From positions 1 to 64,000 of the forward strand of contig JBBSXB010000001.1 of NCBI GenBank assembly GCA_038046005.1: a stretch of DNA of 64,000 bases, written 5' to 3'. The DNA is from Nanobdellota archaeon (lineage in GTDB: Archaea > Nanobdellota > Nanobdellia > Pacearchaeales > GW2011-AR1). Positions 9,277 to 57,565 of this stretch are shown in pieces (position 1 is the stretch's first letter; each line of letters opens with the position of its first letter). The notes below the pieces were generated by a model, which saw only the letters and a list, made by a program, of their open reading frames with translations, had not been told where the DNA came from and did no database searches. The position numbers and the translations under genes are program-made.

Positions 9277-9678
9277 ATGAAAAAAGTCCTTTGTTTTGGG
9301 ACGTTTGATATCTTACATGAAGGTCATAAAAAGTTTTTAATAGATGCTAAAAAACAAGGAGATTTTCTTATTGCGAATGTTATCAGTGACAAAGCTGTTT
9401 TAGAAAATAAAAAAATAAAACCAATAAACAATCAAAGAAAAAGAGCATTAAATTTGAAAAAATTAAATATCGCAAACAAAATAATAGCAGTTTCAGATGA
9501 TAATACCAAAAATTTCCTATTAATAAAGAACATTAATTCAAAAGTAATCGCTATTGGTTATGATCAAAAATCAAATTTTATAGATGAGCTAAAGAATTTC
9601 TTAAAGAAAGAGGGGCTAAAACCAAGGTATTATGTCTCAAAGGAATTGGGGGGAATTCATTCCAGTCATCTAAGATGA
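9277..9678 (+). CDS. ribL: FAD synthase/cytidylyltransferase family protein
   Basis: GTFDILHEGH, GYDQ, IHSS. Confidence 0.75.
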   Translation: MKKVLCFGTFDILHEGHKKFLIDAKKQGDFLIANVISDKAVLENKKIKPINNQRKRALNLKKLNIANKIIAVSDDNTKNFLLIKNINSKVIAIGYDQKSNFIDELKNFLKKEGLKPRYYVSKELGGIHSSHLR

Positions 9679-9996
9679 TGGGTCTTTCTTAAATCTATTT
9701 GCGTCTCGGCCGTAATGTTTTTCTTGCATAACTTTGTCCTAAGCTTCTTGCAAATTAATTTTCTGGGAATTCGCCATGCAAACTACAGTAAACATAACAT
9801 CTATTAACTCGTCCTGTAATTCTTTTTTAGCCTCGCTGTCTTTCTTTTTCTTTGTACCAAAAAGATGATTAATTTCTCTAGCAACTTCACCAGTTTCTTC
9901 AGCTAATCTTGCAACAATTTCATGTGGCGGCCAATATTTAGGAGTAAATTGAGAAGCCCATTTGTCAACATCATCTTGAATATCTTTTAAGGACAT
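9670..9996 (-). pseudogene. MazG/YpjD-like nucleotide pyrophosphohydrolase with an in-frame TAG
   Basis: RLAEETGEVARE, ELIDV; reading frame continues QEA*DKVMQEKHYGRDANRF past the TAG at 9739-9741. Confidence 0.75.
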
Positions 9997-18591: not shown

Positions 18592-19275
18592 ATGAAAAAG
18601 AGAAAATTAAAAGAGAAATTAAAGTGGCTTCCGCTTTTTCCATTAAGTGTTGTTTTGTTTTATGTTCTGATAATAATTTTAGGAAGAATTAACATAATGC
18701 CTTCCGAGCCAGAATTGATAATTGGAATTGAAAAGTTTTATGACAAATTTGGACTTGTAGGATTAGCGATAGTCACATTCGTAGAGGGCTTGGCTTATAT
18801 AGGGCACCAGTTTCCGGGAATGAGCATAATACTTGTTTCAATGACTGTGGGGGGAAAGAATTTTTTCGCAATAATCTCAATAGTATTGGTAATTTCTCTT
18901 GCATTAATGATAAGCAGCATGATTAATTATCTTGGTGGAAGATATTTCAGCAAGTATGGCTCAAGAAAGTTTAGTAAAAAAAGAAAAAGGGTTGAGAAAA
19001 CTATTTTTTTAGCTTCACTACACCCGGCTTTTCTCTCACTGTATTTTTTCAAAAGTGGTCTAGAAAGAAAACACTTCAAAAATGTCTTTCTTGTTCCTTT
19101 GATAGTATTTCCGTACGGACTGATAATAACATACACCTTATCTTTATTTTCTGAATTTTTATTAAAAAATGTTTTTTCTAAAGAGTGGTTTTTCTTGGCA
19201 ATTTTCTTAGGTTGGTTTTTGGTTGAGTTAATGGCAAGAAATAAAAAGTATATAAAAAAGAAGATAAGATTTTAA
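18592..19275 (+). CDS. DedA-like membrane protein
   Basis: FVEGL..FPG..INYLGGRY, multiple TMs. Confidence 0.65.
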   Translation: MKKRKLKEKLKWLPLFPLSVVLFYVLIIILGRINIMPSEPELIIGIEKFYDKFGLVGLAIVTFVEGLAYIGHQFPGMSIILVSMTVGGKNFFAIISIVLVISLALMISSMINYLGGRYFSKYGSRKFSKKRKRVEKTIFLASLHPAFLSLYFFKSGLERKHFKNVFLVPLIVFPYGLIITYTLSLFSEFLLKNVFSKEWFFLAIFLGWFLVELMARNKKYIKKKIRF

Positions 19276-54727: not shown

Positions 54728-56140
54728 ATGAGCTATATGATTTATGATCTTATTTTGTTGGGAATATTCATAATTGCAGTTGGAAGTTTTTTATACAGAA
54801 AAAGAGAAAATTTGAAGAAGGAAGGTTTGCTTTTTCTTTACAGAGCAGAGTGGGGAATAAAATTAATAAACAGCGTAGGGAACAAGTATAAAAAAACATT
54901 AAAATTTTTGAGTTACATTTCAGTGATATTAGGGTATCTGCTCACTGTAGGAATTCTTTATCTTACTTACTCTATTGTTAAAATTTATATATTGCATCCT
55001 GAAGTTGTTAGTGCTATAAAAGTCCCGCCGATAACACCATTGATTCCCTACATTGACAAGGTTGTTCCTTTCTTGCCTCCTTTTTATTTCACATACTGGA
55101 TAGTAATTTTAGCGATTGTCGCAATAAGCCACGAATTCGCACATGGAATTTTTGCAGTTTATAACAAAGTGAAGATAAAAAAAACAGGATTTGGATTTTT
55201 CCCATTTTTCTTGCCAGTATTTTTAGCCGCTTTTGTTGAGCTTGACGAAAAAGTTATGGTAAAAAAATCAAATTTTGCGCAAAGAGCGATTCTTGCTGCA
55301 GGAACATTCGCTAATGTAGTTACTGCAGTTATATTCTTTATAGTTTTAGGATTATTTTTCATGGCAGCTTTTCAGCCAGCAGGAATTACTTTTGATGATT
55401 ATTCTTATTCTGCTTTAAGTGTTTCATCAATACACTCAATTAATGGCGTCATAGTAGTCAACACTTCTGAAGAAGGTCTTCAAAAATTAATAAAAAATGC
55501 TTCTTTCAATGAGATTGAGGCAGGAGGGAAAAATTATGCCGGTATTAAAGGATTTTCAAGTGATGGGAAAACTATAGCTCTTTATGATGATTCTCCTGCA
55601 ATAAAAGCAGGATTAAATGGTGCCATAACTGAAATTAACGGACAAAAGATAATGAGTGTAGATGCTTTGTCTCAGGAATTATCCAAACATAATCCAGGAG
55701 AAAGTGTAATCATAAAAACAGAGACAAGCAATGGAACCAAGAATTATAATATTACTTTGGGACGAAATCCTGCTAATTCTGGGAAAGTTTGGTTGGGAGT
55801 TGGTTTTTTGACACAAGAAACGAAGGGATTTTTCAATAAGGTTTTTGCATCAATTTCTTCCTTTAAAAAACCTAATATATACTACAAGTCAGTAATCGGA
55901 GAATTTGGATGGTTCATATACCACTTGCTTTGGTGGCTCATACTAATAAGTTTCAGCGTCGCATTGGTTAACATGCTGCCAATAGGAATTTTCGATGGAG
56001 GAAGATTCTTTTATCTAACAATTTTAGCAGTTACTGGAAAAGAAGTTTGGGCCCGAAAAATCTTTAAGTGGGTAACTTGGCTTTTCATACTTCTGTTGAT
56101 AGTTTTAATGGTTTTTTGGGCCTTTGCAGTTATATTCTAG
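54728..56140 (+). CDS. Site-2 protease (M50) with PDZ domain
   Basis: HEFAH, AAG, PDZ-like segment, NMLPIGIFDGG. Confidence 0.93.
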   Translation: MSYMIYDLILLGIFIIAVGSFLYRKRENLKKEGLLFLYRAEWGIKLINSVGNKYKKTLKFLSYISVILGYLLTVGILYLTYSIVKIYILHPEVVSAIKVPPITPLIPYIDKVVPFLPPFYFTYWIVILAIVAISHEFAHGIFAVYNKVKIKKTGFGFFPFFLPVFLAAFVELDEKVMVKKSNFAQRAILAAGTFANVVTAVIFFIVLGLFFMAAFQPAGITFDDYSYSALSVSSIHSINGVIVVNTSEEGLQKLIKNASFNEIEAGGKNYAGIKGFSSDGKTIALYDDSPAIKAGLNGAITEINGQKIMSVDALSQELSKHNPGESVIIKTETSNGTKNYNITLGRNPANSGKVWLGVGFLTQETKGFFNKVFASISSFKKPNIYYKSVIGEFGWFIYHLLWWLILISFSVALVNMLPIGIFDGGRFFYLTILAVTGKEVWARKIFKWVTWLFILLLIVLMVFWAFAVIF

Positions 56141-56193
56141 AAGGTTTTTTAAACTGCAAAGAATTGTTACAACGATATAAAAAAGTGGTGAAA

Positions 56194-56505
56194 ATGGGAA
56201 AAATTTCAGAAAAACAATATACTTTTATGGTTGCAATTGTTGGGATTTTGATAGTTTTATCATTATTCTTAATCTTAAGTGACTTTATTGAATTTAGAAC
56301 AGGAAACGTTGCAAAAGACGTTCAAGGAAAAAGGGAATGTTTTGTTGGGACCTGTAATACTTATTACAGATGCGGCGAAGCCGGAAGTTTACAAAAGAAC
56401 ACATGCACAGTAAATAAAGAAAGCGGGACTTGTGATCCCATAGAACCACCAAACACATGCCAATTTGTTGAAGAAGTTTGTAACACGAAGAAAGTTATTT
56501 GTTGA
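56194..56505 (+). CDS. Small membrane-anchored Cys-rich protein
   Basis: N-terminal TM, RTGNV, eight Cys. Confidence 0.55.
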   Translation: MGKISEKQYTFMVAIVGILIVLSLFLILSDFIEFRTGNVAKDVQGKRECFVGTCNTYYRCGEAGSLQKNTCTVNKESGTCDPIEPPNTCQFVEEVCNTKKVIC

Positions 56506-56805
56506 TTATCTAGAAGGAACATATTCTGCTTCCCAAAAAGAACCTTTACAGCCTTTCAAAGATAATAATTTTAAGGCATTCATTAATTCAATTTGTTTTG
56601 TATTACCAAAAGTTAATTTTTCTAAACCTCTTTCTATATCTTTTATCCTGATAATTTTTCCAGAGTGAGTTTCGACATGAGGATCACGATTACTGTCTGG
56701 ACCTAATGGAAAAACAGCAAAATACCCCTTTATTTCCAAGCCTATTATCAAACTTTCTCTTTCAGAATCACTTAAATTTTGGTAAGTATCCCAATCAATT
56801 TTCAT
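56506..56805 (-). CDS. Orphan hypothetical protein
   Basis: ATG at 56805, immediately after the duplicated gene tail. Confidence 0.55.
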   Translation of the reverse strand: MKIDWDTYQNLSDSERESLIIGLEIKGYFAVFPLGPDSNRDPHVETHSGKIIRIKDIERGLEKLTFGNTKQIELMNALKLLSLKGCKGSFWEAEYVPSR

Positions 56806-56825
56806 TTCACAAATCAATAACTCCT

Positions 56826-56862
56826 TCTTCCGAAGTGTTTCACGGAGTAAACCTTCGCAGAA
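56826..56862. repeat. GC-rich palindromic hairpin (REP-like)
   Basis: CGAAG-T-GTTT-CACGGAGT-AAAC-CTTCG. Confidence 0.5.
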
Positions 56863-56863
56863 A

Positions 56864-57214
56864 TTATAAGTCTATGACACCCTCTTTTGTCAATGCAGCA
56901 AATCTAATTCCAACTGGAAAATTTATCAGCGCAGAAATCAAAGCCATGTGCTCTTTTCCTTCTCCAGAAGCTAAACTCAAAGCTACTTCCATGCCGCTAA
57001 TTTTTCCCTTGAGTTTTTCTGAAAATTCATCTCTAAGCTCTTTTATTTTTTTGCTAAAATCTACCTTAATAAATTCAAATGGTTTTTCATGCTTGAATTC
57101 TTTTGCAAAGTCATCTCCAAAAATAATTATCTTATCCCATTCTCCATACTTCATTAAACCAGAAACCTGCGCCCAGGTTCCCTTCCCAGTTGATAATAAA
57201 GCTACGAGTTCCAT
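56864..57214 (-). CDS. Hypothetical Rossmann-like (CARF-like) protein
   Basis: LVALLSTGKG..DKIII..VALSLASGEGKEH. Confidence 0.7.
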   Translation of the reverse strand: MELVALLSTGKGTWAQVSGLMKYGEWDKIIIFGDDFAKEFKHEKPFEFIKVDFSKKIKELRDEFSEKLKGKISGMEVALSLASGEGKEHMALISALINFPVGIRFAALTKEGVIDL

Positions 57215-57215
57215 T

Positions 57216-57413
57216 TTAGTCTATTTTGGCTGTTTCTGTAATAAGTTTAATTAATCTAGACTGATCTGCTTCAACTTCACCTACTGTTTTTCCATCAGCT
57301 ATTCTTTTTTGAGTTAGATGCGGTCTTGGATGGCCGTAATCTGGGTCGTTGCAGTATGCACAATTTGTTGGACAGGGAGTCCACTCTTGAGGATTATATT
57401 TTTGATTGTTCAT
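57216..57413 (-). CDS. Small Cys/His-containing orphan
   Basis: CPTNCAYC..HPRPH. Confidence 0.5.
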   Translation of the reverse strand: MNNQKYNPQEWTPCPTNCAYCNDPDYGHPRPHLTQKRIADGKTVGEVEADQSRLIKLITETAKID

Positions 57414-57565
57414 TTTAAAAAGACAATAGTAGGATTTTTAAGCATTATTGTGATTTTTAAATTAGTAATCTTTATAAACCGATTTTATCTCAAGATTTAG
57501 TCGTTTGAACCATATCGTCATGGGATATATTCTATGTTCATGGCGCATAATCTGGGAGACATACA

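Follow-up and report, generated by a model that had tools for sequence, protein, structure and literature searches.

The end of a conserved gene at positions 56807-57214 of the window (the whole stretch of DNA analysed, 64,000 nucleotides long) raises the question of why a gene should be followed by a second, synonymous copy of its own ending, which of the two copies is the original and how the other came to be there. The genome containing the window (G000; 874,611 bp or 0.87 Mb, 33% GC, 15 contigs) carries archaeal genes, its S11, TFS and OapB being of archaeal type. Here t1 denotes the upstream tail copy and t2 the downstream one, and the locus is made up of the following parts.

56864..57214, minus strand: conserved 116-aa gene, without a Pfam or NCBIfam match, present in 55 of 61 related genomes
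56864..56884, minus strand: t1, the expressed tail EGVIDL plus TAA (GAG GGT GTC ATA GAC TTA TAA), the added or derived copy
56828..56863, minus strand: 36-nt insert spacer, TTTCTGCGAAGGTTTACTCCGTGAAACACTTCGGAA, with 3 CpG and 44% GC
56831..56857, minus strand: hairpin CGAAG-GTTT-ACTCCGTG-AAAC-A-CTTCG, homologous to hairpins in genomes G106, G117 and G152 and to the G000 S11 hairpin
56807..56827, minus strand: t2, EGVIDL plus TGA (GAA GGA GTT ATT GAT TTG TGA), identical to the tail in genome G022, the displaced ancestral tail
56506..56805, minus strand: 99-aa downstream gene, with its ATG at 56805-56803 and syntenic homologues in G029, G016 and, weakly, G006

The layout given in the earlier note was confirmed on the minus strand: t1 and t2 lie exactly 57 nt apart and in phase, and all seven codons differ, the stop included, each silently. 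The insert comprises 57 nt (56884 to 56828), in which the last six codons are repeated and followed by a stop codon and the 36-nt hairpin spacer, and a single A (56806) separates the t2 stop from the ATG of the 99-aa gene. No identical run between t1 and t2 at this locus exceeds 3 nt, and t2 uses the preferred codon at five of the seven positions, where t1 has a minor codon. The GC-rich hairpin that had been placed between the tails is present at 56831-56857, and it is modest rather than exceptionally stable: the spacer folds into a stem of 9 bp with a single bulged A, closed by an 8-nt loop (−8.2 kcal/mol, z = −1.3 against shuffles), and the 101-nt region around it gives a folding z of −0.97. 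Spacer GC is 44%, as compared with the 27% typical of sequence 3' of stop codons. The 16-mer core of the hairpin occurs once in G000, where a relative of the hairpin lies 3' of ribosomal S11. Searches of Rfam (E up to 10) and a tRNA scan returned no match at the hairpin, and a terminator scan did not call it as an intrinsic terminator (a GC-rich stem followed by a T run). A convergent 145-aa ORF occupies 56068-56505 on the plus strand; it has an N-terminal hydrophobic stretch, a cysteine-rich C-terminal half and no Pfam match.

The tail duplication at the 116-aa gene is real and not a product of chance. In G000, 4 of 3297 ORF ends are followed within 200 nt by a second copy of their six-residue tail and stop, as against 0-1 in each of ten permutations, and duplicated gene heads (N-termini) show no excess (1 case, compared with 0-3 in permutations). 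Two Logan contigs assembled independently of each other (runs X5 and X6, possibly the source sample) are identical to the window over 55000-57529, a comparison in which assembled contigs are blind to rare variants. A second, G001-like organism, about 83% identical, is present in the same samples (window 55000-57215 against runs X1, X5 and X6). That a related species shares the samples is what could be said for a mixed-strain assembly artefact; set against the permutations, the agreement of independent assemblies and the occurrence of the same structure in other genomes from other assemblies, such an artefact, or a chance resemblance, has a negligible probability.

To decide which copy is the original, orthologues of the 116-aa gene in 19 relatives were read for 110 nt 3' of the stop. 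None carries a second tail. Their common tail is GAA GGN GTT ATT GAT TTG TAA, followed in 8 of the 19, by our reading, by an ATG one nucleotide past the stop; by our count, exact matches to the native tail GTTATTGATTTG number 6 among 19 relatives and 7 among 28. The tail and junction of G022 (GAAGGAGTTATTGATTTGTGA AATG) are letter-identical to t2 and its junction in the window, and homologues of the 99-aa gene lie directly 3' of the 116-aa gene in G029 (E = 1e-7), G016 (3e-6) and, weakly, G006 (0.04); no homologue was found in the contigs examined of G001, an 88% complete genome. Since t2 matches the G022 tail with its junction and is joined to a syntenic neighbour, sequence comparison indicates that t2 is the ancestral tail, that t1 with the hairpin is a 57-nt addition, and that the 99-aa gene is a conserved neighbour, neither an orphan nor captured. 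At OapB and GyrB, t1 looks no more foreign than t2 relative to G001, with silent sites saturated.

This reverses the polarity that had been proposed. The earlier note took t2 for the relic of a foreign allele, brought in with a downstream "orphan" through recombination at the hairpin, and read the whole as a fossil of gene capture. A gain or loss as a block is indeed what a comparison with G001 might suggest, as G001 and its co-resident relative lack the hairpin, the second tail and the 99-aa gene jointly (379 nt being replaced by 27 nt), and the neighbour 3' of GyrB likewise differs between G000 and G001. When the ortholog tails were compared, however, the t2 codons turned up in G022, the adjacency of gene and neighbour in G029 and G016, and hence t2 and its neighbour represent the ancestral arrangement, which other genera show; the hairpin and t2 occur without that neighbour in G106, G117 and G152; and the G001 tail is nearer t2 (4 of 7 codons differ) than t1 (7 of 7). 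Capture is largely refuted by this synteny and is left as a very improbable account. The hairpin is no one-off scar either: a search of genomes found it, with both tails, at the same site in G106, G117 and G152. What survives of the original proposal is an insertion or recombination event at hairpin-bearing DNA, with separate histories of the two copies and saturated synonymous sites. The sequence GAAGGAG remains plausible as an upstream signal for the neighbour, although it is not new there, as the same letters stand in the intact tails of relatives before the neighbour's start.

The duplication is not confined to the 116-aa gene. A whole-genome scan for recurring tail plus stop, carried out in G000 and G001, found six such loci in G000 once shorter words were allowed: the 116-aa gene and five others, named from Pfam and NCBIfam matches.

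SMC, G000: 13 residues repeated, offset 73
OapB, G000: 13 residues repeated, offset 72
GyrB, G000: 7 residues repeated, offset 63
TFS, G000: 4 residues repeated, offset 55
Ribosomal S11, G000: 5 residues repeated, offset 52, copies identical in DNA

Together with searches for the hairpin and the SMC spacer in 301 genomes of the order, the total came to 17 cases in 9 genomes, the peptide-based scans being biased toward intact second copies and the hairpin-based finds free of that bias. All cases share one architecture, in which the first copy ends at the stop, the spacer (25-90 nt) starts there, and the last 4-16 codons and stop then follow again. The length of the duplication varies (15, 18, 21, 24, 39, 42 and 51 nt) and its end is always the stop codon. 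The six G000 loci lie at 56807-56884 of the window and at C3 17327-17441, C6 27921-28034, C8 163815-163901, C8 24596-24665 and C1 119518-119587. Their spacers (210 nt in total) contain 12 CpG, with 2.9 expected, and three copies of ACTTCG, with 0.02 expected; among them only those of the 116-aa gene and OapB fold well, and folding is weak in those of SMC, GyrB and TFS. ACTTCG recurs in spacers of differing sequence (twice in SMC, at the 116-aa locus, in G021 OapB, in G006 and in a nested piece in G152), and palindromes such as CCAAGCTTGG, GACGTC and TTCGAA are common in spacers.

An order-wide scan of the 301 genomes with the hairpin 16-mer gave 18 matches, as against 28 for a reversed control, and the contexts of the matches were therefore read. 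Four are true modules: the 116-aa gene and S11 in G000, and the same site of the 116-aa gene, with hairpin and both tails, in G106 and G152. Among the 301 genomes no hairpin was found 3' of the 116-aa gene without a second tail, and none of this type was seen in plain intergenic DNA, the expected landing place of a free transposon, the motif being confined to tail modules. Of 30 loci read among the 41 genomes searched in the genus g24 (4 with little readable flank), 2 carry the module, those of G106 and G117. The 116-type hairpin is found in three genomes (G106, G117 and G152) of two other genera, and congeners of G000 are without it. In an alignment of five hairpins, 97.7% of cells are paired and 3 of 9 pairs show compensatory changes on both sides, as many as were obtained in 7 of 500 shuffles. 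Spacers of the 116/S11 type form an inverted repeat whose arms co-vary. In G152 (L155), two tandem hairpin units lie 3' of the 116-aa gene, the second tail is short by one codon, and the loop of the first hairpin holds a 45-nt piece with two small hairpins and no long duplication. The hairpin loop itself may have served as an insertion site in G152.

Other spacers recur in the same manner. With up to 3 mismatches allowed, the SMC spacer was found in 3 of the 301 genomes (G000, G001 and G152), always at the SMC tail, and control matches numbered 0; it is identical at 30 of 30 letters between G000 and G001 and differs by one letter in G152 over the 25 nt searched. The S11 tail of G152 contains an insert with the same 18-nt duplication as in G000 and a homologous spacer with compensatory changes in its outer stem. 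Different spacers occupy the same genes in other genera, at SMC in G017, OapB in G021 and G022, and GyrB in G008. A spacer-like stretch related to the G021 OapB spacer (sharing GCTCGTC...ACTTCGCATAA) lies 3' of SMC in G006 (L024), where a possible truncated second tail would make it a decayed module. Viral contigs gave no match to either spacer, and metagenome contigs gave only one G001-like contig and one chance match; a 16-mer scan of genome contigs gave at least 119 matches over all phyla, which were assumed to be chance without reading of their contexts.

Several further observations were made in the course of these searches. Letters directly 3' of the OapB, GyrB and 116-aa gene stops are masked as N at L058, L091 (G013) and L314 (G302). 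The gyrB open frames of G015, G013, G019, G039, G042 and G012 extend to 1061-1578 aa, suggesting in-frame insertions such as inteins. In G000, contig C6 carries an 87-nt periodic in-frame repeat at 18600-18810 (…PQECIDAG…), and contig C7 carries at 9440-9700 a 130-nt repeat in which the start of a gene is duplicated (MITYNDIY, 92% identical).

The youngest-looking copies bear on how a module is formed. At S11, an empty and a filled site can be compared directly: G001 lacks exactly 52 nt (the 34-nt spacer and the 18-nt tail copy to the stop), the flank being otherwise conserved. At OapB in G021 (L053), three 51-nt tail copies differing only in the stop codon alternate with two identical 45-nt spacers, forming a small array of repeats and spacers where the gene ends. 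At SMC in G152, 4 silent sites distinguish t1 from t2, and both carry lineage-specific residues. These three cases indicate that new modules arise with duplication of the resident tail in situ.

Older copies have diverged almost entirely at silent sites. By our count, the 17 t1-t2 pairs in 9 genomes differ by 84 synonymous and 4 non-synonymous codons, the G000 and G001 pairs among them not being independent. In the five diverged G000 pairs, 15 of 47 codons are identical, with 21.8 expected for independent draws (P = 0.025), and at the 116-aa locus, a case picked for that very property, identity is 0 of 7, with 3.0 expected (P = 0.017, uncorrected for that choice). As the pooled P is marginal, no directed recoding is claimed, and t1 and t2 are simply saturated at silent sites. 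The tails are small samples (15-51 nt). The preferred codons stand in t2 and the rarer ones in t1 in 4 of the 5 diverged cases. At SMC, t1 differs between G000 and G001 at 7 codons and t2 at 8, all silently, a rate of change that matches the gene body (about 45% of codons differing), and the 30-nt spacer has not changed. Since t1 and t2 differ by 13 letters, more than the 7 between the two t1 copies, the SMC insertion common to G000 and G001 predates their split. An insertion that is both shared and old, with a t2 that has changed only silently, requires either repeated re-invasion or selection on t2. At TFS, about a third of the spacer letters differ between G000 and G001, and t2 shows two changes, both silent. 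The hairpin-based finds include two replacements in the G106 t2 (D/E and G/R) and the loss of one codon in G152.

Two further rival readings were considered. According to one, an old in-situ insertion was inherited vertically and the copies then divided the labour: t1, being coding only, would drift silently, and t2 would keep a nucleotide-level upstream role and so remain frozen and coding-like. The t2 of the 116-aa locus, which equals the common tail of the family and still abuts the neighbour's ATG, is in agreement with this, as are the strong letter conservation of native tails and the concentration of preferred codons in t2. This reading fails, however, at SMC, where t2 faces a convergent gene in G000 and has accumulated its 8 changes relative to G001 at third positions only, and at OapB, where t2 has changed at 5 or more codons relative to G001, all silently by our parsimony reading; and the G106 t2 has been kept although a convergent gene follows. 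Vertical descent would moreover demand many precise losses, as the module is absent in 19 of 19 relatives and at 28 of 30 g24 loci, and we regard a division of labour as unlikely.

According to another reading, likewise unlikely, both tails are in use, the spacer and one tail being removed at some frequency by DNA excision, RNA splicing or translational bypassing, such that either copy may end the protein and both are under protein-level selection. The silent-only changes of t2 between G000 and G001 (8 of 8 at SMC and 2 of 2 at TFS), which proceed at the rate of the gene body, would be expected in that case, and the unchanged SMC spacer beside saturated silent sites, the lineage-specific residues shared by t1 and t2 in G152 SMC, and the clean empty sites of congeners are in agreement with it. 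A 1-nt indel behind the stop (offset 72 as against 73) excludes plain read-through and does not exclude removal. No vehicle for removal was found, as a bulge-helix-bulge motif whose intron would match the offset in length occurs in 0 of 8 cases, Rfam and tRNA searches are empty, and no identical t1-t2 core of 6-8 bp is available to a recombinase. The two replacements in the G106 t2 and the codon lost from the G152 t2 do not fit selection for two intact endings, and as both products would be the same protein, use at the RNA level would bring no benefit. The more specific proposal that the spacer is a functional, reversible mini-element, removed precisely with one tail from DNA or transcript and leaving two selected endings, would account for the silent-only change of t2, the conserved SMC spacer and the empty sites of sister species; we consider it quite unlikely. 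In a sharper form, the module may behave as a natural drive that brings along a silently recoded copy of an essential gene's end as its own rescue.

The data have led us to favour a different model, in which the module is a tiny insertion module without an ORF that arises by tail duplication and spreads between relatives together with its own tail copy; belief and doubt in it are evenly balanced. Beneath it lie direct observations: the architecture, its recurrence, the ancestral copy, clean empty and filled sites, and the patchy distribution. In a first step, a short foreign piece would enter the 3' end of a gene together with in-situ duplication of the tail, whereby the upstream gene would retain its ending and the downstream neighbour its native upstream sequence. 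In a second step, recombination within the conserved gene would carry the unit of tail copy plus spacer to the corresponding site of related lineages, and the recipient's own tail would stay behind as the second copy. Spread with an own tail would explain both why copies resemble diverged orthologues, with silent and saturated differences, and why the displaced copy still looks like coding sequence.

Descent of the first copy and spacer apart from the host is suggested by several lines of evidence. The distribution is patchy, the module being absent in the congener G001. The gene bodies of G106 and G117 are 77% identical (52% at third positions) and the two are not closest kin, as G333 is nearer to G106 than G117 is and lacks the module, yet 19 of 21 letters agree between their t1 copies and 29 of 36 between their spacers. 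ATA for Ile, by our count, is found in 3 of 4 t1 copies and in 1 of 47 native tails. The G106 t1 encodes D where the displaced copy encodes E. Lastly, the G000 t1 is nearer the G106 t1 (16 of 21 letters) than the G001 tail (13 of 21), and the gene bodies show the reverse. Against lateral spread counts the fact that no elevated identity, as would mark a co-conversion tract, is seen upstream of t1 between G106 and G117. The want of polarity at OapB and GyrB and the need for re-invasion or selection on t2 at SMC count against it as well.

The proposed insertion module carries no machinery of its own. An ORF lies between the copies in 0 of 17 cases; no second tail copy was found 200-1500 nt downstream at 90 SMC, OapB and GyrB loci, those of G000 included, or within 15 kb in G000 and G001 apart from paralogues; and no mobilising gene was found in or adjoining any module. 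Family searches of G000 gave no match to Cas1, GIY-YIG, IS200 TnpA or TnpB. The matches they did give, to one HNH protein and two tyrosine recombinases, all lie away from the modules, and the recombinases are on other contigs.

Known systems were compared with this architecture. Integrative elements that target gene 3' ends, among them the E. coli icd prophages e14 and 21 and the tRNA-targeting archaeal elements, carry a replacement gene end, extend over kilobases and have their integrase gene beside the att site. They share with the modules a gene 3' end that is doubled (attL and attR), an element copy that may differ silently, and a repeat that ends with the gene. This identity was rejected, as only a 36-nt spacer, and no integrase or element body, lies between the copies, and as a shared identical core is absent at the 116-aa locus (runs of at most 3 nt), young cases being identical throughout. 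MITEs, REP-like elements and CRISPR units resemble the modules as short palindromic DNA between direct target repeats, with spacers of 25-45 nt, an insert nested within the loop of a hairpin (G152) and a tandem array (G021); they differ in that the duplication here (15-51 nt) ends at the stop, occurs in 1-3 copies per genome and flanks a spacer common to genera. A MITE or transposon was rejected for want of a fixed-length target duplication, of IS200 TnpA or TnpB and of dispersed copies outside tail modules, and CRISPR-type integration was rejected given that Cas1 and a CRISPR array are absent (the scan gave only a protein repeat) and repeat lengths vary.

A short structured gap in or at the end of a frame is also found in translational bypassing (phage T4 gene 60 and the yeast mitochondrial byps) and in archaeal bulge-helix-bulge introns. 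The likeness lies in the non-coding structured gap, with a stop codon and hairpin at its start; unlike in those systems, the frame in the modules is complete before the gap, and the protein needs no bypass. The first codons of the two copies match in SMC, OapB and GyrB and do not in TFS (CGT as against AGA). A bulge-helix-bulge intron fits 0 of 8 cases in our strict scan (two 3-nt bulges 4 bp apart). The consensus of integron attC sites is RYYYAAC for R'' and GTTRRRY for R', and GTTTAC and GTGAAAC at the 116-aa locus fit neither.

The closest parallel is provided by the mobile ORFs of fungal mitochondria, which bring in a foreign C-terminus and displace the native one (Allomyces atp6; Glomus atp6, atp9, cox2 and nad3) (PMC3630166). 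The order described there, of gene core, inserted C-terminus, mobile piece and displaced native C-terminus, is the order found here (PMC3630166). In the fungal cases it is the native copy that close relatives match, the inserted one having diverged in DNA and remained alike in protein, and spread is between related lineages (PMC3630166). In the archaeal modules, the native copy is nearer relatives than the inserted copy at the 116-aa gene and not at OapB or GyrB, where silent sites are saturated. In the fungal systems, mobility has been shown to be driven by an endonuclease ORF of several hundred bases (PMC3630166), in contrast to the archaeal spacers of 25-90 nt, which have no ORF and no linked nuclease; the archaeal hosts, further, have small genomes, and the targets are core genes of nuclear type. 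The portions of the literature covered by our search held no description of a tail-copy plus spacer architecture in archaea.

The look-alike inserts at core genes, in G000 and in related genomes, point to a kind of mobile DNA that is very small and has so far gone undescribed. If this reading holds, compact archaeal genomes would carry mobile or exchangeable DNA far below the size of a self-sufficient element, which would survive in a genome with hardly any spare sequence by duplicating the few codons used by the upstream gene and by its neighbour alike. The modules would then provide a natural marker of recombination between lineages at the core genes SMC, GyrB, S11, TFS and OapB, and foreign gene ends would call for caution on the part of annotators and phylogeneticists. 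That the displaced copies evolve like coding sequence poses the question of their use.
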